Part shown: positions 2,871-31,021 of the stretch, piece by piece
Layout: every line of letters starts with the position of its first letter
Position numbering within the stretch: position 1 is the stretch's first letter
The notes under the pieces: generated by a model
Databases searched by the model: none
Seen by the model: the letters and a program-made list of their open reading frames with translations, nothing else
Told to the model about the DNA's origin: nothing
Program-made: the position numbers and the translations under genes
Assembly: GCA_964594455.1 (NCBI GenBank)
Contig: CAZQLY010000001.1
Coordinates: 69,989 to 133,988, forward strand
Direction of reading: 5' to 3'
Source of the DNA: an uncultured Gammaproteobacteria bacterium
GTDB lineage: Bacteria > Patescibacteriota > Patescibacteriia > JAHIZJ01
Length of the DNA stretch: 64,000 nt

Positions 2871-3796
2871 AAATGAGGCCATACGTTGTCACGGAGGATG
2901 TGGAGTTCCTGATGCAGTGCTGGGCCCGTGAGATGAACTTTCGTTGTCCTGAGAGTGCTTTTTTCCAAGCGCTCCAGAGTGAACTGTTCGATCATCTGCG
3001 GTCCATATTTCCAGAAGTCGTGAGTATCAGCCATGGAGACATGACTGAACAGCTGAGGCAAGCGATCGCTCGGGCTGAAAGCGGAATTGTTGTTTCGATT
3101 GACCGAGTCTACAATCAGGCGACGCACCGTCTCCAGAGTAATCGGATTGCTGATCTTAACAGCACGAACGTTATCGGTGAGGCGCCGCGTCCCGGTCATC
3201 CTTCACTGCAGGAGCAGATTAGCCTTTTACCGGCCGGCCCCTTAACCTTGGTGGATGACGGTTGCTTCTCTGGGGTAACCCTGAACAAGATTCACGATCT
3301 GCTAGTGACCGATGGGCACAGAGTGTGTTCAGTCATCGTGGGCGTGTTGATCGATCGTTCCAATAATGAGTTCTTGGCCAAACATCCGGACGTGAAGCTG
3401 ATCGCGCTTCAGGAATTTCCTGAGGCGATCGATTGGATCTGCGAGCGCGATTTCTTCATTGGTGTTCCCCTGTCTGGCCGGACCGGTGGGTATCGGGAAG
3501 GAAACGTGGTTACTGCCTGTGATCCTGAGGTAGCTTTGCCATACTGCATACCGTTCGGCGACCCAGTCAGCGGTGCGTCGATTCCGGCAGACCAGGCAAT
3601 CACTTTTTCCAAGAGGGTACTACAGCTCAGCCGACGGCTTTGGGAGGAAGTCGGCCGCGTGTCTGATCGGCCAGTGTTGTGTCGAGACATCCCGCGCCTG
3701 CCGCGTGGTGTATCTCGGGGCGATGAACCGTTTATTGATGCCCTGGACCAGGCTCTGCAGAAGTTGCGGACCAATGGTTCTGAGGCTAGGATGTGA
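2867..3796 (+). CDS. phosphoribosyltransferase-domain protein, lying in a GC-rich islet
   Basis: 'LTLVDDGCFSGVTL' matches the type-I PRTase PRPP-binding motif (hydrophobic x4, DD, xx, S/T-G-x-T). ATGA overlap with the GNAT gene suggests translational coupling. Confidence 0.35.
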   Translation: MKMRPYVVTEDVEFLMQCWAREMNFRCPESAFFQALQSELFDHLRSIFPEVVSISHGDMTEQLRQAIARAESGIVVSIDRVYNQATHRLQSNRIADLNSTNVIGEAPRPGHPSLQEQISLLPAGPLTLVDDGCFSGVTLNKIHDLLVTDGHRVCSVIVGVLIDRSNNEFLAKHPDVKLIALQEFPEAIDWICERDFFIGVPLSGRTGGYREGNVVTACDPEVALPYCIPFGDPVSGASIPADQAITFSKRVLQLSRRLWEEVGRVSDRPVLCRDIPRLPRGVSRGDEPFIDALDQALQKLRTNGSEARM

Positions 3797-3881
3797 GATT
3801 AATTCTTGCATCCTTTTTTTATTTGCTTTTTGGGCTGATAATAGATATAATTATCTTGATTTCATTATTGATATTAAACAC

Positions 3882-4382
3882 ATGAAAAAAACTTTATTTA
3901 TTACGCTGGGGTTGTTGTTAGTGGTCGTAATGGTTGGAGCTAGTTGCGGCCAAAAAGCGGCTGAAGAAAAGATTGAAAATGATATTGAGAGCGCAACCAA
4001 CGGTGACGCCGAAGTAGATTTGGATGATAACAGTGTCAAAGTAAACACCAACGAAGCGACTTTTGAGGCTGGCGAAAGCGTTGATTTGCCAGAAGATTTT
4101 CCATCAGATGTGTTTGTGATTGATGGCACTATCATCGCTGCAGTGACTGTTGAAGAGGGTGATTCCTATTCATTGAACATTCAAACTTCCAAATCAGTCT
4201 CTGACGCCAAAGCTGAATATGAAGAAGAACTAGAAGCTGACGGTTGGGATATAAATGTCTCGATGGATTTAGGCGGCAGTTCTACTATGTCGGCTGAAAA
4301 AGATGATCGGTTGACTACAATCACAATTAGCGAGGTGGATAGTGTCACCACAGTAATTCAGACGACCACTAAGAACGAATAA
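3882..4382 (+). CDS. acidic lipoprotein, hypothetical
   Basis: The true start is the internal Met at 3882: MKKTLFITLGLLLVVVMVGASCGQ is a signal peptide plus lipobox (GASC). The longer ORF beginning at 3573 overlaps the upstream gene and has a different composition. Confidence 0.5.
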   Translation: MKKTLFITLGLLLVVVMVGASCGQKAAEEKIENDIESATNGDAEVDLDDNSVKVNTNEATFEAGESVDLPEDFPSDVFVIDGTIIAAVTVEEGDSYSLNIQTSKSVSDAKAEYEEELEADGWDINVSMDLGGSSTMSAEKDDRLTTITISEVDSVTTVIQTTTKNE

Positions 4383-4390
4383 CATAGTTA

Positions 4391-4852
4391 ATGAGTCAAT
4401 CAGAGGCAACATTGTATCGATCGCGCACCGACCGCATGGTGGGGGGAGTCTGCGGGGGTTTATCCAAATATTATAGCTTGGACCCGATTGTTACCAGACT
4501 GATTTTTGTGGTTCTGGCGTTGGTTGATGGAGTGGGTATACTTTTGTATTTGATTCTACTAGTCATAATCAAGGAAGAACCGGGTGAAAAAGTAGATGTC
4601 GACACAGGTGCAAAAACCAAAGAGTTTATTAATGAAGCTGGTAAAAGATCGCAAGAGGTGGCAAAAAACATAAAAACTAACCAATCTTGGATTGGAGATA
4701 AGCGAAATTTAATAGCCTTGTTGATAATCGTAGTCGGCATAGCCTTGCTATTGAAACAGCTATTTCCAGAAAGACTGGTGCATTGGGAATACGTTTGGCC
4801 CGGCATCTTAATAGTTTTTGGTTTTTATCTAATCACTCGTCATAATAAATAA
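4391..4852 (+). CDS. PspC-domain membrane protein
   Basis: 'LYRSRTDRMVGGVCGGLSKYYSLDPIVTRLIFVVLAL' is the classic PspC N-terminal domain. A C-terminal TM segment follows. Confidence 0.7.
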   Translation: MSQSEATLYRSRTDRMVGGVCGGLSKYYSLDPIVTRLIFVVLALVDGVGILLYLILLVIIKEEPGEKVDVDTGAKTKEFINEAGKRSQEVAKNIKTNQSWIGDKRNLIALLIIVVGIALLLKQLFPERLVHWEYVWPGILIVFGFYLITRHNK

Positions 4853-21125: not shown

Positions 21126-22838
21126 GTGGTAAATAAAACATCAAGCGAAAAGAAATTATTATCAATCAGCCAAGTGTCGAAAATCTTTGGTATCCACCAA
21201 GATACACTTCGTAATTGGGAGAAAAAAGGACTCATTACTCCTCTCCGGGTGGGTCCTCGTAAGGACAGAAAATATCGCCCTCAAGATATTGAAAGAATCG
21301 CCAACGATAAAAGTCTCGTAGATGAATTTATTTCTCCGGTGGCTGATGAGCGAGGGAAAATGAATCTCACCCAGTTAAAGCAGTTTCTCTGGAGAAGCGC
21401 TGATATATTACGTGGAAAAATCGATAGTTCCGATTACAAAAAGTATATTTTTGGACTTCTTTTTTATAAGCGCATTAGTGATGTGTGGGATGAAGAATAT
21501 AAAAAAGTTTTGGAAGAGTTTCACAATGAAGATTTAGCACGCAGTGATCACAATCACCGCTTTCAGGTTCCAAAAGATTGTCAGTGGTCAGAGATTCAAA
21601 AACAGGCAGAAGGAATCGGGCATAAGCTCAACGAAATTTTTGATAAACTTACCAACGCAAACAACCCGAAGCTGGATAAGATATTTGATGATCTTGATTT
21701 TGCGAATAAGGACAAATTTCCTAATGAGACACTCCAGCGTCTGGTCAATCATTTTTCTCAATTCAATTTTGGCGATAATTATATCAGTTCCGATCTTTTG
21801 GGTGACGCATACGAATACCTTATTGAGCAGTTCGCGGCGGATGCTGGAAAAAAAGGTGGGGAGTTCTACACACCCCGTGAAGTAGAGCGTGTAATTATTA
21901 ATATTTTGAAACCGCACGAAAAAGACCACATCTATGACATGGCGGCTGGTTCGGGCGGGTTCTTACTCGAGGCATATCATTATCTTAAAAGTCAGGCAAG
22001 CGAAAAAAAAGCTCGCTCACTGTATCTCTATGGCCAAGAAATAAATATTGGCACATACGCGATTGCAAAGATTAATATGTTTCTGCACGGACTTGATGGT
22101 GCGGACATTCAGCGCGGTGACACGCTAGCGGATCCGAAATTTCTCAATCCCGATGGCTCACTTAAAACATTCGACATTTGCGTGGCAAATCCACCATATT
22201 CTGTAAAAGAATGGGAAACTGAAACATTTAGAGCCGACAAATACGGTCGGATTACTGACTATGAAATGCCCCCGACCAAAAAAGCCGATTATGCCTTTGT
22301 TTTACACATGGTGAAGTCAATGAATGAAAATGGTCGTGCCGGAATTGTACTTCCCCATGGCGTGCTTTTCCGTGGTGGTGCAGAGGGTCGTATCCGCGAA
22401 AAACTCATCAAAGATGATCTCATTGAAGCAATTATTGCTTTACCGCCTAAACTATTTTATGGCACAGGGATACCTGCAGCGATCGTAATATTTAATAAGA
22501 ATAAACCAGAGGAACATAAGAATAAAATTCTCATCATTGACGCTGAAAAGGATTTCGAGGAGGGGAAAAATCAAAATCGCCTTCGCAAGAAAGATATTGA
22601 GAAAATCGTTTTAGCCTTTGATGGGTATCGGGATATAGAAAAATATGCCCGTGTAGTAGATATTAAAGAATTAGAAGAAAACGAATTTAATCTAAATGTT
22701 CGTAGATATATTGAGAATGGTGAGGATGAGGAAGTGGTGGATGTCAAAACAGTATGGAGCGAGTTAAAGGATATTGAAAAAGAGCGCGAGGTGGTTGATA
22801 AAAAAGTCGAGGGGTATTTAAAGGAGTTGGAGTATTAA
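21126..22838 (+). CDS. hsdM: Type I restriction-modification system methyltransferase HsdM, with an in-frame N-terminal HTH (excisionase/MerR-like) extension
   Basis: 'NPPYS' N6-adenine methyltransferase motif. HsdM N-domain 'LWRSADILRGKIDSSDYKKYIFGLLFYKRISD'. The first ~78 residues ('ISQVSKIFGIHQDTLRNWEKKGLITPLRVGPRKDRKYRPQDIERI') look like an HTH_17/Xis-type DNA-binding domain. The ORF begins at GTG 21126. An internal ATG at 21360 (MNLTQLKQFLW...) matches canonical HsdM starts. Confidence 0.85.
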   Translation: MVNKTSSEKKLLSISQVSKIFGIHQDTLRNWEKKGLITPLRVGPRKDRKYRPQDIERIANDKSLVDEFISPVADERGKMNLTQLKQFLWRSADILRGKIDSSDYKKYIFGLLFYKRISDVWDEEYKKVLEEFHNEDLARSDHNHRFQVPKDCQWSEIQKQAEGIGHKLNEIFDKLTNANNPKLDKIFDDLDFANKDKFPNETLQRLVNHFSQFNFGDNYISSDLLGDAYEYLIEQFAADAGKKGGEFYTPREVERVIINILKPHEKDHIYDMAAGSGGFLLEAYHYLKSQASEKKARSLYLYGQEINIGTYAIAKINMFLHGLDGADIQRGDTLADPKFLNPDGSLKTFDICVANPPYSVKEWETETFRADKYGRITDYEMPPTKKADYAFVLHMVKSMNENGRAGIVLPHGVLFRGGAEGRIREKLIKDDLIEAIIALPPKLFYGTGIPAAIVIFNKNKPEEHKNKILIIDAEKDFEEGKNQNRLRKKDIEKIVLAFDGYRDIEKYARVVDIKELEENEFNLNVRRYIENGEDEEVVDVKTVWSELKDIEKEREVVDKKVEGYLKELEY

Positions 22839-22841
22839 ATA

Positions 22842-24293
22842 ATGAAAACAGAGATTTCTAACAATAGGATGATAAATGGGCAAACGAAAAATTTGCAAAT
22901 TAAACATTTAAGCAAAGTAAATGTTATTTTTGGCAAAAATGGAACTGGTAAAAGTAGTTTCTTAAGAAATCTCTATCAATCAGATTCAGAGAATTTTCAC
23001 TTAATTGTACCTGAGAGAGGTGGTGCAGAAATGCGGCAAAATTCTGGGATATTAGATCAGGAAAATAATCCTCAACAAAAGAAGGCAGTTAGAAGATGGA
23101 ACTTCGATTCAGAATATCGAAGCAGAGCAATTTCTAGAGCAACTAACATTCTCACTTCACTGGGATACAATACGGCCCATAACATTCAATCCAAAGAGGT
23201 GTCAGCTGAGGAATTAACTACACTATTTAGGGTTTTCTTGCCGGAGTTTAAAGTAATATTTAACTCTAGCGCCCCGTTTAATCTTGAAATTTTCCGTGAG
23301 ATTAATGGAAATGAAGAAAAAATAACAGATGCAAAGCAGTTATCTTCTGGGCAAGTTGAAGCATTATCACTAGCCGCAGATATCATTACTCAAGCCATTT
23401 TGTGGGACGCGACAGAAAAAACTCTCTTAATTGATGAACCCGATGTTCACCTTCATACTGATTTAGAAAACAGATTTGCAATTTTTATTAATGAGATAGC
23501 CAAAAGATTTGGCGTACAAGTTATTATTGCCACCCATTCTTCCGGCCTAATCGCAAGCTTACTGAGTTTAATAAAAGAAGTTGGAATTTTATGCTTTGAT
23601 AAAAATAGTGAAGAGATTTCTGCTATACAGAAGGATCAGGCATCTATTTTTACAAATTTATTGAGCATTGAGTTGTCCTTGGCGGTCGTTTTGAATAGGA
23701 AAATAGTCATTGTTGAAGGCAATGATGATTTTCTGGTTTGGAATCAGGCAACACGTTCGCAGCAATTTGACGATATTGCATTAATACAGGCGAATGGTAG
23801 CGATATATTAAAATACAAAAATAATGCGGAGAAAATTTTAGAAGCTGTTCTTGATAGAAATTGTCAACTTGGTGTTACTTTACTTGATGGTGATAACAAA
23901 CAAAAGTTTACTAATCAACAAAATGATAAACTACCTTGCGAAAGATTAAATTGTTATAGCTTAGAAAACTTATTGTTAACCAACGAAGTTCTACAAATAA
24001 TCAAACCTGACATTGATCTGAACAACGAACTTAAAGTTCTTAAAGGTGAAGATAATATTACCGATGATGAAAAAAATATTCTTGATGGGGTTATTAAGGA
24101 CAAACAACACACAAAAATACCCAAGGAACTGATAAAAAAAATTCATTCATATATTGACGAACACTCATCGTCACGCGATTGGAGAATTATTATTGGTAAA
24201 AGTCTGGGTATAAATATGCCCTCTGGGGAATTAGCGTCTTTTTTAGGGGGAGACATTGTGAAATATATTTGGAATGAGAATAAAGAAATATGA
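22842..24293 (+). CDS. ABC-type ATPase fused to a Toprim-like domain (OLD-family / PARIS AriA-AriB-like / GajA-like nuclease)
   Basis: Walker A 'GKNGTGKSS', ABC signature-like 'QLSSGQVEALSLA', Walker B 'LLIDEPDVHLH', H-loop 'ATHSS'. C-terminal 'KIVIVEGNDDF' ... 'LLDGDNK' resembles the Toprim/DUF4435 E and DxD motifs. Sits directly after the hsdM stop. Confidence 0.55.
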   Translation: MKTEISNNRMINGQTKNLQIKHLSKVNVIFGKNGTGKSSFLRNLYQSDSENFHLIVPERGGAEMRQNSGILDQENNPQQKKAVRRWNFDSEYRSRAISRATNILTSLGYNTAHNIQSKEVSAEELTTLFRVFLPEFKVIFNSSAPFNLEIFREINGNEEKITDAKQLSSGQVEALSLAADIITQAILWDATEKTLLIDEPDVHLHTDLENRFAIFINEIAKRFGVQVIIATHSSGLIASLLSLIKEVGILCFDKNSEEISAIQKDQASIFTNLLSIELSLAVVLNRKIVIVEGNDDFLVWNQATRSQQFDDIALIQANGSDILKYKNNAEKILEAVLDRNCQLGVTLLDGDNKQKFTNQQNDKLPCERLNCYSLENLLLTNEVLQIIKPDIDLNNELKVLKGEDNITDDEKNILDGVIKDKQHTKIPKELIKKIHSYIDEHSSSRDWRIIIGKSLGINMPSGELASFLGGDIVKYIWNENKEI

Positions 24294-24682
24294 CAGAAGT
24301 TGAAAAATTACAAATCTCAATTAGTCGAGAGCACTCTGATGTTAAGGGTGAAATCAGTGAAATTTTTAAAGATCTAAATGCTAGTGTTAAGGCAGACTAC
24401 GTGCGCCTTTCTGAAAGCGAGCTAGCGATGCAGGTGATTATTTTTTTAACAACTGCTTTTGCGGGTGGAGCACTGTGGGATGTACTAAAGTGGTCGATAA
24501 AAGAGCTGTATAAAAAACACCCTAAAGCGATGGTTGAAATTCGTGATTCGGATTCTATTATGTACGCGGTTAAAGGAGACTTAAGTATTACGGTGATAGT
24601 TGCCCCAGATAGGGCAAAAGAGTTTGAACACATAAACACGCTCGACGATTTACGGAAGCATTTAGAGTCGACTAAAAGATGA
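24290..24682 (+). CDS. hypothetical small protein, translationally coupled partner of the ATPase-Toprim gene
   Basis: ATGA overlap with the upstream gene. 130 aa with no recognised motif. Confidence 0.4.
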   Translation: MTEVEKLQISISREHSDVKGEISEIFKDLNASVKADYVRLSESELAMQVIIFLTTAFAGGALWDVLKWSIKELYKKHPKAMVEIRDSDSIMYAVKGDLSITVIVAPDRAKEFEHINTLDDLRKHLESTKR

Positions 24683-24837
24683 AAAATAATACAACACAAA
24701 AGAATATTCCGAGCGGGTGGAAACTAAAAAAATTGAGTAATGTTTTGGATTATGAACGACCAGATGCCTATATTGAAAAAAAGCGCGGGATTGTTGACAA
24801 AAAAGTTGGAGGGTATTTAAAGGAATTAAAATATTAA
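24679..24837 (+). pseudogene. chimeric remnant ORF: hsdS 5' fragment (~33 codons) fused in frame to the hsdM 3' end (~19 codons)
   Basis: Nucleotides 24679-24778 are ~90% identical to the hsdS start at 25722-25820. Nucleotides 24781-24837 are ~80% identical to the hsdM 3' end at 22782-22838. The joint lies at the shared microhomology ATATTG(A/T)AAAAAG. Translation gives MKNNTTQKNIPSGWKLKKLSNVLDYERPDAYIEKKRGIVDKKVGGYLKELKY*. Confidence 0.6.
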
Positions 24838-24840
24838 TTT

Positions 24841-25239
24841 ATGAACGAGAAAAGACTAAAACATTTGGAGTTAATTCAAGGGGTCGTCACCAGAATGGGC
24901 TCAAATCTCTTTACATTAAGAGGTTGGATGATAACGCTTGTCGTCGGTCTGTCTGTTGCTTTTTTGGAGGTTGGGCGTAATGAATTGCAAATTATACTAG
25001 TATTCGTTGTTTTAATATTTTGGATCCACGATGCGTACTTCCTTTCTTTGGAGCGAAGCTACCGATGCATGTACGACAAAGTTAGGAAATTAACAGAGGA
25101 TGAGATTGATTTTTCAATGGATATTTCGGAATTTAATAAGTTAAGGGCGACATCCATTTGGTACTGCATGATATCCGGTACTCTGGCGTATTTTTATATA
25201 CCGACTCTCGTATTGATAGGAATAATAAGTATATTTTAA
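24841..25239 (+). CDS. small three-TM membrane protein (SLATT-like / TM effector candidate)
   Basis: 132 aa with three predicted hydrophobic helices (WMITLVVGLSVAFLEV; IILVFVVLIFWI; IWYCMISGTLAYFYIPTLVLIGIISIF). Starts 3 nt after the chimeric scar and ends 2 nt before the TIR gene. Confidence 0.5.
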   Translation: MNEKRLKHLELIQGVVTRMGSNLFTLRGWMITLVVGLSVAFLEVGRNELQIILVFVVLIFWIHDAYFLSLERSYRCMYDKVRKLTEDEIDFSMDISEFNKLRATSIWYCMISGTLAYFYIPTLVLIGIISIF

Positions 25240-25241
25240 TT

Positions 25242-25721
25242 ATGACAAGAAAAATATTTTACAGTTTTCGTTTTGATGACGACGTAATGAGGGTTCAGCA
25301 AATCCGAAATATAGGAGTTATCGAAGACAACAAGCCTGTTACGGCTAACAAATGGGAAGAAATTAAAAGTGGCGGTGATTCTGCGATTCAAAAATGGATT
25401 GATGCTAGCATTGCCCGATCTGAATGCGTCGTTGTGTTAATTGGAAAAAATACTTCACAAAGTCGTTGGGTTGATTACGAAATCAGAAAAGCTTGGAACG
25501 ATGGTAAGGGCTTAGTGGGTATCTACATTCACAATTTAAAAGACCCAAGGTATGGAACCTCTGATAAAGGCACCAATCCTTTTGAACAGATAGGATTAAA
25601 AAATGGAAAAAAATTATCTGAATATGTTTCTGTTTATAACCCAGACACAGATGCCTACAACTATATAGCTAAATACATAGATCAAATTGTCGAGAAAGGA
25701 ATCGATTCGCGGAATAAATAA
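25242..25721 (+). CDS. TIR-domain protein, ThsB-like (DUF1863-type)
   Basis: 'KIFYSFRFDDD' (TIR βA FxSY..D start), 'VVVLIGKNTSQSRWVDYEIRKAW' with a conserved Glu near residue 80, and 'GLVGIYIHN'. This pattern resembles Thoeris ThsB-type TIR proteins as recalled from memory. Confidence 0.55.
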   Translation: MTRKIFYSFRFDDDVMRVQQIRNIGVIEDNKPVTANKWEEIKSGGDSAIQKWIDASIARSECVVVLIGKNTSQSRWVDYEIRKAWNDGKGLVGIYIHNLKDPRYGTSDKGTNPFEQIGLKNGKKLSEYVSVYNPDTDAYNYIAKYIDQIVEKGIDSRNK

Positions 25722-26882
25722 ATGAAAACTGACACAATACAACAAAATACTCCGAGTGGATGGAAACTCAAAAAATTGAGTGATGTTTTGGATTATGAAC
25801 GACCAGATGCCTATATTGTAAAAAGTACAAGCTACAACGACAAAGCAAAGACCCCAGTGCTTACCGCAAACAAATCCTTTATCTTGGGATATACAGATGA
25901 GGATTTCGGAATTTATAAAAATGTTCCTGCAATAATTTTTGATGATTTTACCACTGACAGCAAGTTTGTAGATTTTCCGTTTAAGGTTAAGTCTTCAGCG
26001 ATTAAAATCTTAAAAGAAAAAAATAAAGAGATAGATCTGCGATTTGTATTTGAAAAAATGAAGTCAGTGAATTTCCCTACAGGAAGTCATAAGCGTTTCT
26101 ATATTTCGCAGTATCAAAATTTAGACATAACAGTTCCCCCGATCAAAGAACAGCAAAAGATTGCAGAGATATTGGGAGGAGTTGATGAGGATATTGCGAA
26201 GACGCAGGAAGTGATTGAGGCGACCGAGAAGCTCAAGCGCGGATTGATGCAACAGCTTTTTACTCGCGGGATTGGGCATACAAAGTTCAAAGATACAGAG
26301 ATTGGAGAGATTCCAGTAGAATGGAAGTTGGAACAATTAAGAGATGTGGCTGATTTTATAAACGGAAAAGCACACGAAAGAGATATTACTGAATATGGTC
26401 ATTATGTTGTTATCAACTCAAAATTTATTTCTACAAATGGAGAGGTTGCAAAACGTTCAGATAAAAATTTGATCCCATTAAGTATTGGGGATATTGCAAT
26501 GGTAATGAGCGATGTCCCTAATGGCAAGGCGATTGCAAAATGTTTTTATGTTTTAGAAAATAATAAGTATACCCTGAATCAGAGAATCTGCTCACTTCGT
26601 GCAAAAAATATCTATAGTAGATTTTTGTATTATGTCGTAAACAGAAATCAATATTTTCTTAAACATGACGACGGAGTTGGACAAACAAATTTAAGAAAAG
26701 ATGAAGTGTTAAACTGCCCCGTCCAAGTTCCGCCAATTAAAGAACAGAAAAAGATCGTCAGAATTATTGAAGCTGTCGATGAAAAGATTTTGATTAATAA
26801 GAAATTAAAAGAAAAACTTACCCAACTCAAAAAAGGCCTGATGCAGGATCTTTTAAGTGGGATGAAGAGAGTAAAAATATGA
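25722..26882 (+). CDS. hsdS: Type I restriction-modification system specificity subunit HsdS
   Basis: Two target-recognition-domain halves, each followed by a conserved 'PPIKEQ(Q/K)KI..IL..VDE.I' repeat (residues ~139 and ~334). Gene position between hsdM and hsdR. Confidence 0.85.
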   Translation: MKTDTIQQNTPSGWKLKKLSDVLDYERPDAYIVKSTSYNDKAKTPVLTANKSFILGYTDEDFGIYKNVPAIIFDDFTTDSKFVDFPFKVKSSAIKILKEKNKEIDLRFVFEKMKSVNFPTGSHKRFYISQYQNLDITVPPIKEQQKIAEILGGVDEDIAKTQEVIEATEKLKRGLMQQLFTRGIGHTKFKDTEIGEIPVEWKLEQLRDVADFINGKAHERDITEYGHYVVINSKFISTNGEVAKRSDKNLIPLSIGDIAMVMSDVPNGKAIAKCFYVLENNKYTLNQRICSLRAKNIYSRFLYYVVNRNQYFLKHDDGVGQTNLRKDEVLNCPVQVPPIKEQKKIVRIIEAVDEKILINKKLKEKLTQLKKGLMQDLLSGMKRVKI

Positions 26883-27562
26883 AAGATGATATGGAGAAAA
26901 AATGGGAACAAAATCATTTGACTCTTTGGCAGGATGATTCCTCACGAATAGAAGAATTCTTCAAACGATTTGGTGTAGAAATGTCGCAATCCTATAATAA
27001 TCTTTTCAATCTGGATTATGATTTCATCCAGCCAGCTATTTATCTAATTGGGAAAATTGAGAAGGTCATAGAGGTATGCGATTTTTTGAACTCTCTTGCG
27101 AAAAATAATCATGATGACGTTGATAAGATTAAAATATTTTATTTAGTTTCACATGCCGAAATTATTATCAATACTTTTACCGCAAATTCGGCCGGTATGA
27201 ATAAAAGTGATTTAGTTGATTCCTTTTTTGAGCCCGTTAAGGATAAATTACAGTATACCTTGCAGCTCACGAGTGAGGATACGAATAAATTAAGCAAAAT
27301 GAATCAACAAATTACTCCAAGCAGGATATTGTACAAATTGCGCAACGAATATGCTCATCAGGGTAATTTTACGGGTAAGATTTTTAAATTGCTCACAGAT
27401 GAAGAAAAGGTATCCAACCTATTTTCGTTCGATTGGGATATCCCGAAAGCACAACCGCTTGATGTTTGTGGTCTAACAAGATTAACATACGATCAGTTTC
27501 TTCATATATATTTTTCAGCTTTTAAGTGGCATTTTGAAGACTATATAAAAAAACATTCATGA
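26879..27562 (+). CDS. hypothetical protein with a HEPN-like R-x4-H motif, embedded between hsdS and hsdR
   Basis: 'KLRNEYAHQG' fits the Rx4-6H HEPN signature. ATGA overlaps with both hsdS and hsdR. Otherwise no recognised motif. Confidence 0.3.
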   Translation: MKDDMEKKWEQNHLTLWQDDSSRIEEFFKRFGVEMSQSYNNLFNLDYDFIQPAIYLIGKIEKVIEVCDFLNSLAKNNHDDVDKIKIFYLVSHAEIIINTFTANSAGMNKSDLVDSFFEPVKDKLQYTLQLTSEDTNKLSKMNQQITPSRILYKLRNEYAHQGNFTGKIFKLLTDEEKVSNLFSFDWDIPKAQPLDVCGLTRLTYDQFLHIYFSAFKWHFEDYIKKHS

Positions 27563-30477
27563 AATTTAACGAACAGGTAACAGTAGAAAATTATATTATC
27601 AAGTTTATTCAAAATAAGCTTGGTTATGAATACGTTAAGCCAGAGGAATTTGCTAAATACCGTGATCTTGAGAGTGAATATATTATCACCCCACTTTTAG
27701 AGAATGCTATTAAGAACCTCAATCAAGATATTACAGAAAATGAAATTAAAAATGTCATTCGCGAAGTCAAAAAGATTGATACAAATCAAGGTTTCCTAGA
27801 GGCCTTGAGAAACGGAGTTAACTTAAAAAATCCCAAGACAGGCAAGAAGCACGATTATAAATTACTTGATTTTGAGAATCCTGAGAATAATCAATTTGTC
27901 GTTACCAATCAATTTTATTTCGAGGGCGACAGTGAGAATATTCGACCTGATGTTATGATTTTTGTTAACGGATTGCCACTTGTGGATATTGAAGCAAAGA
28001 GCCCGACTGCCTCAGAGGGTGTCAGCTTTGAGAATGGAATGGATCAGATTAAGCGATACGAAAAGGTAGCCCGAAAATTATTCATTCCAAATTGTTTTAA
28101 TATTGCTAGTGACGGACTTAAAACGGTATATGGCGCGACTGGCGCACCGAAACAGTACTTTTTTCAATGGCGCGATGAGGATAAAGAAAAAGAGATGGGT
28201 GGCGAACTTGAGATGACCTTGTTTGCACTTTTAGCAAAGGAAAATTTCTTGGATATTGTGCAGAATTTTATACTGTTCGAAAAAGAGAAAGAAATGCTCG
28301 TGAAGAAAATTACTCGATATCAACAAATGCGTGCGACGAATAAGATTGTCGAGCGAGTGGTGAATAAGGAAAAGCGACAAGGTTTAATTTGGCACACACA
28401 AGGTTCAGGTAAGACATTAACCATGTTTTTCACTGCGTGGAAATTACGCTTTAATAAATTGTTGAATAATCCAAAGGTTTTTATTTTGGTTGACCGAGTT
28501 GATTTAGATGATCAGATATTTGAAACGTTTACTAACGCCGGGGGTAAAAATGTCATTCGTGTTATTTCCCGAAAAGATTTAGAAGAGAAGATTCAGTCCC
28601 CAATGAGTGGTATATTTATCACTACCATTCAAAAATTTTCAGAACTCGGTAGCAAGGTAGAAAATTTAGAAGAGAATGTGATTATTCTTTCTGATGAAGC
28701 ACACCGCGGTGATGAGGGAGTGTCAGGTATTAATATGCGTAACGCATTTAAAAAAGCGTTTTTCTTCGGGTTTACTGGTACGCCAATCGATAAAACGCAT
28801 ACAAATACATTTCGCAATTACGAAGGTGAGGGTAAGCGCTATCTTGATTATTATTCCATTCAGCAGGCAATTGATGATGGCGCGACCATTCCCGTTACCT
28901 ATGAAGCGCGGTTGTCTAAGTTTTCTATTGATGAGGAAAAGTTAGATCAGCAGTTTGATGAGATTGCTGGTGATCTTTCAGATAAGCACAAAACTGAATT
29001 GGTAAAGAAATATGGAAAGAAGGCAGCACTTGTGAAACTACCAAAACGTATGGAGGCAATAGCACGTGATATAGTGGAGCATTATAAACTATATATAGAA
29101 CCGAATGGCTTTAAGGCGCAAGTTGTGGCTTACGATCGTGAAGCTGTTGCTGGGTATAAAAAGTTACTTGATGAATTAGTGCCAGCTGAATGGTCTGCCG
29201 TGGTGTATTCGCCCGGTGATCCCAACAGTGATGCCGATGATCTGAAGGCGTATAACACGAGCAAAAACGAGAGAGAGAAGATTATTGAACGATTTAAAGA
29301 TCCGAAATCTCCTCTTAAATTTCTTTTAGTCTGTGATATGTTGCTGACTGGTTTTGATGCACCTGTTGAACAAGTAATGTACCTGGATAAACCACTCCGC
29401 GATCATAATTTATTGCAAGCGATCGCGCGAACGAACAGGGTTTACAATAAAAAAAAGGAAGCGGGAAAAATCATTGATTATTATGGGATAACTAGGAACT
29501 TATACGATGCGCTTGATTTTGATGAGGATATAGTCGATTCCGCGATGATTGATATAGATAGAGTCAAGCAAAGGTTCACTGATGTGTTGGATGATGTCAT
29601 GAAGATTTTCACTGGGGTCAATATTGAGGACCCTTCAATGGATAATTTGCGGCGTTGTTTAAAAATTTTCATTGATAATCAAGATAAGCAAAAATATTTT
29701 GTCGAAAAATATACGAAACTTAAGAGCTTATTTGAATTTTTATCGCCAGATCCATTCTTGAAACAGTATGTCCGCAAGTTTGAATGGCTCACCAGTTTTT
29801 ATCTAGCTTTTTTGAAAGAATATCGTAGTGAAGAGGATAGATATTTACTGGAAGAATATGGTGAAAAAGTAAAAGAACTGATTCAAAAGAGTGATATTAT
29901 TGACTACGAAGGTATAACTAAGAATTTTCGGGAGCTCAAGGTCAATGAATTGTATACCCTTGAACGTCTCAAAGGCATGGACGACGAGGAAAAGGCGCTC
30001 AATTTGGAGAAAATGCTTAAGCAGGAAATTTCTATTAAACTTGATGAAGATCCTGCCTTCCAAAAGTTTAGCGAGCGCCTCACGGCAATACGGCGAGAGT
30101 TCGAACAAAATCAAATTGATCTTGCTGAGAGGATTCGCAGATATGAGGAATTAATGAAAGATATTAAATCTAAAGGTGATGAAGCCAAGGAGCTAGGGCT
30201 TGATCTAAAAGAATATGCACTATATGTGATCTCTCAGGAGTTTGCTAGTGATAAAGAGGTGGATGTTATTAAAGAGTTCGTTAGAGAGTTACGCGTTCGT
30301 ATTGAGGATGATCTAGACGCTGGTTGGCAAGATTCTTCAAAACGCGACGTATTTATTAAGGATATCAAACAAACCTTGCAAGAATTGATTTTAAAAGACT
30401 ATAAAGGCCGACTGAAGGTTAAAGATTTTCCAAAATTCATGAATAGACTTGTAGATATCATTATCAAGAAATTCTAA
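27559..30477 (+). CDS. hsdR: Type I restriction enzyme endonuclease/helicase subunit HsdR
   Basis: SF2 helicase motif I 'TQGSGKTLTMFF' and motif II 'LSDEAHRG'. 972 aa. Gene position after hsdS. Confidence 0.9.
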   Translation: MKFNEQVTVENYIIKFIQNKLGYEYVKPEEFAKYRDLESEYIITPLLENAIKNLNQDITENEIKNVIREVKKIDTNQGFLEALRNGVNLKNPKTGKKHDYKLLDFENPENNQFVVTNQFYFEGDSENIRPDVMIFVNGLPLVDIEAKSPTASEGVSFENGMDQIKRYEKVARKLFIPNCFNIASDGLKTVYGATGAPKQYFFQWRDEDKEKEMGGELEMTLFALLAKENFLDIVQNFILFEKEKEMLVKKITRYQQMRATNKIVERVVNKEKRQGLIWHTQGSGKTLTMFFTAWKLRFNKLLNNPKVFILVDRVDLDDQIFETFTNAGGKNVIRVISRKDLEEKIQSPMSGIFITTIQKFSELGSKVENLEENVIILSDEAHRGDEGVSGINMRNAFKKAFFFGFTGTPIDKTHTNTFRNYEGEGKRYLDYYSIQQAIDDGATIPVTYEARLSKFSIDEEKLDQQFDEIAGDLSDKHKTELVKKYGKKAALVKLPKRMEAIARDIVEHYKLYIEPNGFKAQVVAYDREAVAGYKKLLDELVPAEWSAVVYSPGDPNSDADDLKAYNTSKNEREKIIERFKDPKSPLKFLLVCDMLLTGFDAPVEQVMYLDKPLRDHNLLQAIARTNRVYNKKKEAGKIIDYYGITRNLYDALDFDEDIVDSAMIDIDRVKQRFTDVLDDVMKIFTGVNIEDPSMDNLRRCLKIFIDNQDKQKYFVEKYTKLKSLFEFLSPDPFLKQYVRKFEWLTSFYLAFLKEYRSEEDRYLLEEYGEKVKELIQKSDIIDYEGITKNFRELKVNELYTLERLKGMDDEEKALNLEKMLKQEISIKLDEDPAFQKFSERLTAIRREFEQNQIDLAERIRRYEELMKDIKSKGDEAKELGLDLKEYALYVISQEFASDKEVDVIKEFVRELRVRIEDDLDAGWQDSSKRDVFIKDIKQTLQELILKDYKGRLKVKDFPKFMNRLVDIIIKKF

Positions 30478-30481
30478 TACA

Positions 30482-31021
30482 ATGACTAATCGCATTACCT
30501 ATACCGTAAAAAGAAGCAAGCGAGCAAAACTAATGCGTCTCGCGGTGTATTGTGATGGTCGGGTTGTAGTAACTGCCCCTATAAATATTCAGGAGTCAAT
30601 AATTCAAAAAATCGTACGGGAGAAGAGTCAATGGTTAGTCCAAAAGATAGATTTTTTTGCACAATTTAAAAATCAACCGATAGCTCGATATAGTAGAAAT
30701 CATTTTCTACAACACAAGGAGAGTGCTCACGAGTTTGTGTCATCGCGCCTAGCCAATCTAAACAAAAAATATGGTTATAATTATAATCAAATTAACATAA
30801 AAAATCAGAAAACTCGCTGGGGTAGTTGTTCAAAAAAAGGAAATTTGAATTTTAATTATAAAATAAAGTTTTTACCAACAAAATTGGCCGACTATATTAT
30901 TGTGCATGAGCTTTGTCATTTGAAAGAGTTTAACCATTCGCGTAAATTTTGGAACCTAGTTGGTAGAACTTTTGCAAATTATAAGGACATCAGAAAGGAA
31001 ATGGTCGCATGGAGAGTGTAA
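30482..31021 (+). CDS. DUF45/YgjP-like (M48-related) zinc metallopeptidase
   Basis: 'IIVHELCHLKEFNHSRKFWNL' is the HExxH...NHS..FW signature of DUF45. The family is frequently hsdR-linked. Confidence 0.75.
   Translation: MTNRITYTVKRSKRAKLMRLAVYCDGRVVVTAPINIQESIIQKIVREKSQWLVQKIDFFAQFKNQPIARYSRNHFLQHKESAHEFVSSRLANLNKKYGYNYNQINIKNQKTRWGSCSKKGNLNFNYKIKFLPTKLADYIIVHELCHLKEFNHSRKFWNLVGRTFANYKDIRKEMVAWRV

Follow-up and report, generated by a model that had tools for sequence, protein, structure and literature searches.

Homology assigns a thsF-thsB pair, embedded in a type I restriction-modification operon of a Patescibacteria-like genome, to type V Thoeris

Two small genes, one coding for a TIR-domain protein and the other for a membrane protein, lie inside a type I restriction-modification (R-M) operon in the window analysed here, a 64-kb stretch of DNA from a Patescibacteria-like genome (Table 1). 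What kind of system do they form, and has it been described before? A preliminary description had regarded them as a Thoeris-like signalling module of possibly undescribed architecture, in which a ThsB-type TIR would be accompanied by a SLATT-like membrane protein. The answer reached here, to which we give a probability of about 0.82, is that they make up a type V Thoeris system, thsF-thsB, set between hsdM and hsdS, in which ThsB would signal to ThsF.

Table 1. Features of the locus (window coordinates) and positions of the CAP12/PCTIR-type genes found beside ThsF relatives in other loci (coordinates of those loci)
Feature	Position	Strand	Description
hsdM	21126..22838	+	type I R-M methyltransferase; marks the upstream limit of the embedding operon; ORF
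483-aa ATPase	22842-24293		ABC/OLD-like; between hsdM and the 130-aa protein
130-aa protein	24290-24682		overlaps the upstream ATPase
Recombination scar	24674..24845	+	copy of hsdS 5' end joined to copy of hsdM 3' end; direct repeats
52-aa chimeric ORF	24679-24837	+	directly upstream of thsF
thsF	24841..25239	+	132-aa membrane effector, three predicted transmembrane helices; type V Thoeris effector family by homology; PADLOC PDC-M50A
thsB	25242..25721	+	159-aa TIR-domain protein; predicted phage sensor and signal synthase
Glu80 codon	25479..25481	+	predicted catalytic glutamate of ThsB
hsdS	25722..26882	+	type I R-M specificity subunit; Pfam Methylase_S, E 1.8e-33
227-aa protein	26879-27562		between hsdS and hsdR
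hsdR	27559..30477	+	type I R-M restriction subunit; same operon, downstream part; ORF, phmmer
YgjP-like peptidase	30482-31021		last in gene order, after hsdR
CAP12/PCTIR-type neighbours of ThsF	about 5494-6501		loci L088, L089, L096, L097 and L105
CAP12/PCTIR-type neighbour of ThsF	3538-4656		locus L102

The pair lies inside a type I R-M operon, as the preliminary description had it; hsdM is upstream and hsdS and hsdR are downstream. Both ORFs are intact and co-oriented on the + strand; only 2 bases separate the thsF stop codon from the thsB start codon, an ATG that stands one base ahead of where a simple reading would put it, and hsdS starts one base past the thsB stop codon. From hsdM to the peptidase gene the junctions are of 0-4 bases or overlapping, and no terminator-like site was found on the + strand between 21000 and 31185. 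We read hsdM to hsdR as one operon on the basis of these tight junctions and of the lack of such a site until after 31185, and thsF-thsB is probably co-transcribed with it. A promoter scan gave 38 candidates where 39.6 were expected, a chance level that makes it uninformative on an internal promoter. The hsdM homologues in loci L007 and L001 carry HsdM_N and N6_Mtase domains, and the window hsdR was matched by HsdR ORFs in 18 related loci (phmmer).

Two other products of this operon deserve a mention. The 227-aa protein, whose gene overlaps both hsdS and hsdR, gave no significant match in Pfam, PADLOC or NCBIfam, and a close homologue (E 1e-123) is found at the same position in locus L041. The N-terminal extension of HsdM (window 21126-21300) resembles a MerR-type helix-turn-helix (ISQVSKIFGIHQDTLRNWEKKGLITPLRVG), and the HsdM homologue of L007 has a Pfam MerR domain in addition to HsdM_N and N6_Mtase; a DNA-binding domain fused to the methylase may act as a regulator of the whole operon, including the embedded cassettes.

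We looked at the TIR protein in the light of known ThsB proteins. It matched Pfam PF08937 (ThsB_TIR) with an E-value of 3.2e-26 and 92 bits, for a cut-off of 21.2, as well as the PADLOC models ThsB1 (E 2e-65) and PDC-M50B (E 3.2e-56); among solved structures, it matched PDB 8wcf_A (E 2.4e-44, ~60% identical) and the B. cereus ThsB structures 6lhy/9b7d (E 4e-18). Judged by these matches, the 159-aa protein is a ThsB-family TIR, an assignment far above chance. The motifs that had been quoted in favour of this family are all present: KIFYSFRFDDD at residues 4-14, LIGKNTSQSRWVDYEIRKAW, which contains Glu80, and GLVGIYIHN. The Glu near position 80, proposed earlier as the catalytic-type residue, lies within WVDYEI, is aligned with the Glu of WVRYEI in ThsB of B. 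cereus MSX-D12 and is conserved in all 181 of the 181 aligned relatives. Genes for relatives with 58-62% identity to the window ThsB adjoin a SIR2-STALD ThsA, in type I Thoeris operons, or a SLOG-patatin gene. The solved structure 8wcf_A, a protein of 160 aa, bears the name 'Molecular chaperone Tir', and a search of the literature library found no paper on 8WCF; it would be a ready template for the ThsB clade of the window.

The partner protein of 132 aa had been taken for a small protein with three transmembrane segments, and both hydropathy and modelling bear this out. Three hydrophobic segments were found (~28-46, 51-69 and 108-132), and the AlphaFold2 monomer model (pLDDT 85.9) contains three long helices (3-44, 48-83 and 113-131), so that ThsF is predicted to have three membrane helices. 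Lysines and arginines are concentrated in residues 1-27 (5) and 70-107 (7) and absent from the short 47-50 loop (0); on hydropathy, charge and the positive-inside rule we therefore infer that the N-terminus and the 70-107 loop, both of them conserved polar regions, are cytoplasmic. The conserved polar residues are K7, H8, R18, R27, D64, E71, R72, R75, R82 and D90-F-S-M. Six of these, K7, R18, R27, R72, R75 and R82, would lie on the predicted cytoplasmic side, which is consistent with the basic pockets of the ring oligomer predicted for type V effectors (see below).

The identity of this membrane protein could not be read from Pfam. The SLATT/DUF4231 identity suggested at first was rejected, as no such model matched at E ≤ 1 and none was among the top families of 148 relatives. 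The sole Pfam match of the window ThsF was a sub-threshold one, to DUF3278. PF10028 (DUF2270), the label given to type V effectors, did not match it in HMMER at E < 1, and it did not match the validated ThsF either (P0392, see below), meaning that the missing match is not evidence against membership of the window protein. Among the 148 family representatives, 16 matched DUF2270 at E ≤ 0.1 (best 1.4e-5) and 47 touched DUF3278; the published DUF2270 label evidently rests on a more sensitive method than HMMER. Direct Pfam DUF2270 membership of the window ThsF is thus unsupported by HMMER, and we used homology to the validated protein instead. A sequence profile search of the PDB for a solved ThsF structure gave nothing below E 0.1, and Foldseek of the model against the PDB gave nothing below E 1, the best being 4dci, a helical hairpin (TM 0.60). 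The family is large, since a ThsF profile search retrieved at least 4788 clusters at 50% identity (E < 1e-3). Two relatives are fusion proteins: P0358 joins a SLOG domain (LD_cluster2/STALD) to ThsF, and P0348 joins an 8xMP 'octameric membrane protein' domain to ThsF. The weak family matches to 8xMP, DUF3278 and DUF2270 suggest, at the level of sequence, that these may form one superfamily of ring-forming small membrane proteins.

The assignment of the pair comes from a comparison with validated systems. Thoeris types V to XI were defined by Yirmiya et al. (bioRxiv 10.64898/2025.12.03.692087, Dec 2025), and type V consists of ThsB and ThsF, a three-membrane-helix protein labelled DUF2270. Two type V systems, from B. 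thuringiensis DAR 81934 and Bacillus sp. 1NLA3E, were validated in that work and protected B. subtilis from phage. Infection led their TIRs, which belong to two different clusters, to make 3'cADPR in both cases; when 3'cADPR was supplied, it proved toxic only in the presence of a type V system, one of the two systems being unresponsive to it, and type V defence was blocked by Tad1. The AlphaFold3 prediction given there for ThsF is a heptameric channel with basic pockets between subunits. In our set, locus L106 encodes a protein identical at 251 of 251 residues to the validated ThsB of B. thuringiensis DAR 81934 (Tables S1/S2 of Yirmiya et al.), and the gene directly downstream codes for P0392 (141 aa). 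Since this is the next gene after the ThsB match and since ThsB and its effector bear consecutive gene IDs in Table S2 (2624526259 and 2624526260), P0392 is ThsF, the effector responding to 3'cADPR. Over 128 aa, the window protein and P0392 share 44% identity (E 1e-34). By this homology the window pair is a type V Thoeris system, and hence a new example of an already described kind of system.

The same comparison links two names. PDC-M50 is one of 145 'phage defence candidates' proposed computationally by Payne et al. (bioRxiv 10.1101/2024.01.29.577857), where the criterion for a candidate was 'guilt by embedding' in loci of type I R-M, BREX or DISARM; it has been listed in PADLOC since 2023-24, and a literature search on the name 'PDC-M50' found no papers. 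Both the window ThsF (PDC-M50A, PDLC04686, E 5.5e-39) and the validated ThsF P0392 (E 1.8e-48) match the model PDC-M50A. To judge by these matches, PDC-M50 and type V Thoeris are one system under two names. The architecture, which the preliminary description took to be possibly undescribed, had therefore already been catalogued as PDC-M50 and then described as type V Thoeris.

We then asked how general the association of ThsF with a TIR is. A genome scan with the ThsF alignment, using one genome per GTDB species, gave 363 relatives, and the best 80 of these 363 loci were examined. A TIR gene adjoins the ThsF gene in 77 of these best 80 loci, in both gene orders. The neighbour is a ThsB of the window's clade in 59 loci, again in both orders, a divergent ThsB of 204-231 aa in 9, a CAP12/PCTIR-type TIR in 6 and a TIR_2 protein in 3; a TIR neighbour is absent in the 3 others (L083, L091 and L098). 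With a TIR that Table S1 of Yirmiya et al. lists as 'DUF2270 - Type V', the divergent ThsB shares 42% identity (E 4e-55). Metagenomic loci give the same linkage picture. TIR similarity, a retained Glu80 and co-occurrence of the two genes, the points on which the preliminary description had made its proposal depend beforehand, were all found. Embedding in a type I R-M operon, between hsdM and hsdS/hsdR, was observed in about a quarter of the loci (~18 of 80), and these include almost all the sampled relatives nearest to the window ThsF (~54% identity or more). The pair stands outside type I R-M operons in the ~60 other loci, and also on plasmids beside type II R-M genes, plasmid-borne ThsF-ThsB pairs being present in Ligilactobacillus salivarius and Terribacillus. 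A B. cereus plasmid locus, L012, was picked because it might supply a ThsF, but no ORF follows its TIR gene.

Some neighbours of ThsF are of another kind. Five Neobacillus species and one Bacillus MAG have ThsF beside a CAP12/PCTIR-type TIR protein of 335-372 aa (E ~1e-23; Table 1); TIRs of this type are effectors in CBASS and Pycsar, not signal generators, and this pairing is outside the tested Thoeris types. In L083 (3585-5405), one of the loci lacking a TIR neighbour, the gene before ThsF codes for a KwaB-like (Kiwa) protein, possibly an alternative partner for the ThsF module.

How would the pair act? By analogy with the validated systems, infection would activate the TIR of ThsB, whose Glu80 would serve to turn NAD+ into an isomer of cyclic ADP-ribose, 3'cADPR being the likeliest. 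This signal is expected to bind the cytoplasmic face of ThsF, made up of the N-terminal helix, with its conserved basic and polar residues, and the loop that follows membrane helix 2. ThsF would be a ring-forming oligomer of three-helix subunits that breaches the membrane upon binding, leading to growth arrest or cell death before phage release. The phage defence, the 3'cADPR and the heptameric channel of this scheme are carried over from the literature on homologues, and the binding site and topology from the conserved and charged regions of ThsF. A TIR signal gating the membrane protein, one of the two mechanisms put forward in the preliminary description, is the best reading. In agreement with the earlier description, the 64-kb window contains no SIR2, SLOG, Macro or patatin ThsA-like gene, and no second TIR or ThsF gene; here all window ORFs were searched by phmmer with three ThsA/SIR2 queries, one Macro query and one SLOG-patatin query, with no match at E < 0.01.

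The most debatable part of this mechanism is the nature of the signal. We favour 3'cADPR as the most likely signal for the window ThsF, by analogy, because both validated ThsF-linked TIRs make it and because the nearest relatives of the window TIR feed ThsA. We infer this identity indirectly for the window's clade, since the validated TIRs are in other clusters: the window ThsB resembles clusters 2661146773 and 2612507145 of Table S1 (Yirmiya et al.), not those of the validated type V ThsBs. The TIRs of cluster 2661146773, the most similar to the window ThsB, gave no known signal in the context of type XI, which has a HIT hydrolase (Yirmiya et al.), and a type XI TIR of this cluster is 42% identical to the window protein. 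The same Thoeris logic might then operate with another molecule, the clade making 2'cADPR, canonical cADPR or another ADPR derivative and the ThsF subfamily being tuned accordingly. The silence of the type XI TIRs towards the known molecules, the type V system that did not respond to added 3'cADPR and the pairing of ThsF relatives with at least four TIR clades all speak for such a change of signal. It is nevertheless unlikely, as the two ThsF-linked TIRs that made 3'cADPR come from different clusters and the closest relatives of the window TIR (58-62%) partner SIR2-SLOG ThsA, for which 3'cADPR is the established activator (Yirmiya et al.).

The roles of the two proteins could also be reversed, the TIR being a toxic effector that depletes NAD+, as the preliminary description had allowed, and the membrane protein a sensor, anchor or regulator that would, for example, sense a perturbation of the membrane by the phage. 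Many bacterial TIRs are indeed NADase effectors, the authors of the Thoeris survey allow such roles for unverified configurations, and the CAP12/PCTIR-type TIRs beside ThsF in Neobacillus belong to a type that acts as effector in CBASS and Pycsar. We nonetheless consider this reversal very improbable and favour ThsB as a signal generator acting on ThsF. Homologous systems show a growth arrest on 3'cADPR supply that depends on ThsF, and near relatives of the window TIR, 58-62% identical to it, serve as signal generators for separate SIR2-SLOG ThsA effectors. Moreover, the fusion of SLOG to ThsF in P0358 is the architecture of an output module, or effector, and not of a sensor, and the pairing of ThsF with several unrelated TIR clades is what is expected of a shared output module. 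Finally, the pair might not be an autonomous defence module at all: it could serve the type I R-M system as an accessory, or be a decaying remnant that recombination has carried along. Its embedding in hsdMSR, with apparent co-transcription, and the recombination scar just upstream of thsF might inspire this view. To it we attach hardly any probability: both ORFs are intact and full length with respect to their homologues, most pairs (~60 of 80 loci, plus those on plasmids near type II R-M) lie outside type I R-M operons, and homologues cloned without R-M genes defend on their own (10.64898/2025.12.03.692087).

Looking at the sequences upstream of thsF, we found what look like the traces of a recombination event. 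Positions 24674-24781 are a direct repeat of the hsdS 5' end (87% with 25717-25824), and positions 24770-24845 a direct repeat of the hsdM 3' end (82% with 22771-22846). The 52-aa ORF that spans them is an in-frame chimera, whose N-terminal part resembles hsdS and whose C-terminal part resembles hsdM, and has no Pfam match. The two end copies overlap by ~12 bases at 24770-24781 (ATATTGAAAAAA), which may be the crossover point. As a result of these internal copies, each of the two embedded cassettes has an hsdM 3' end at its left border and an hsdS 5' end at its right border. From 24772 to 25763, a segment that comprises the remnant and thsF-thsB, the identity with loci L026 and L027 is 87%, when that of hsdM itself is only 78% at the DNA level; both of these loci have the cassette right behind an intact hsdM. 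The scar looks as if recombination between two R-M operons had stacked the cassettes.

A similar duplication is present in L030, a Moraniibacteriota contig, where two copies of the hsdM 3' end (224-340 and 1284-1377) flank an ORF of 309 aa (346-1275); this 309-aa cassette stands between hsdM and thsF, immediately upstream of the latter. Its pattern suggests that the window scar is not a one-off. We tentatively propose, as a possibility that we hold to be less probable than its contrary, that in these small-genome bacteria type I R-M operons serve as docking platforms for cassettes that move together with a copied hsdM 3' end, in some cases also a copied hsdS 5' end, and are exchanged or stacked by recombination across those conserved ends. 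If this were true, a stacked cassette would come under R-M transcription, restriction and abortive infection would be expressed together as layers of a single unit, and the 52-aa hsdS'-'hsdM chimera would be the scar of such an event.

The second cassette of the window (22842-24682), upstream of the Thoeris pair, encodes a 483-aa ABC-type ATPase and an overlapping 130-aa protein. The ATPase, which resembles the retron Eco8 effector, matched Pfam AAA_21/AAA_15 and the AriAB, NsnB and ATPase-Toprim models of PADLOC (best E 1.7e-18); the 130-aa protein gave no family match. This cassette is probably a separate, OLD/PARIS-like defence candidate.

These observations have consequences for annotation, since the PADLOC candidate PDC-M50 and type V Thoeris can now be linked. 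The ThsF family, large as it is, is missed by HMMER with Pfam DUF2270, and because such searches fail to capture it, standard pipelines leave its genes as 'hypothetical'. With this pair, TIR signalling through a minimal membrane effector would also reach Patescibacteria-like genomes. It poses no mechanistic question beyond two that the 2025 preprint had already raised, namely how a sensor-less protein of 130 aa can read a nucleotide signal and which molecule each ThsB clade makes as its signal.

Compared with known systems, the window pair is closest to type V Thoeris, with which it shares adjacent co-oriented genes, a ThsB-family TIR with its catalytic Glu, a homologous three-helix effector of ~135 aa and the absence of a SIR2/SLOG ThsA. 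It differs in that its ThsB belongs to another TIR clade than both validated ones, in its gene order (thsF-thsB, versus thsB-thsF in the validated system) and in its setting, a Patescibacteria-like genome and a type I R-M operon. With PDC-M50 it has in common that both proteins match the A and B models and that embedding in a type I R-M operon is among the defining contexts of the candidate; PDC-M50 came without a proposed mechanism, whereas the present analysis ties PDC-M50A to a validated ThsF. Type I Thoeris, made of ThsB and a SIR2-SLOG ThsA, uses the same ThsB family, its operons containing TIRs that are 58-62% identical to that of the window, and the signal is probably shared, namely 3'cADPR; its effector is a soluble SIR2-SLOG NADase, in contrast to the small membrane protein of the window, which has no ThsA. 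Type VII (ThsB and the SLATT protein ThsH) and type II (ThsB and the Macro-TM protein ThsC) would follow the same principle, a TIR signal acting on a membrane-spanning effector that kills or arrests the cell. Unlike them, the window pair has no SLATT or Macro domain and its ThsF no separate sensor domain, and the signals of these two types are canonical cADPR and His-ADPR, respectively.
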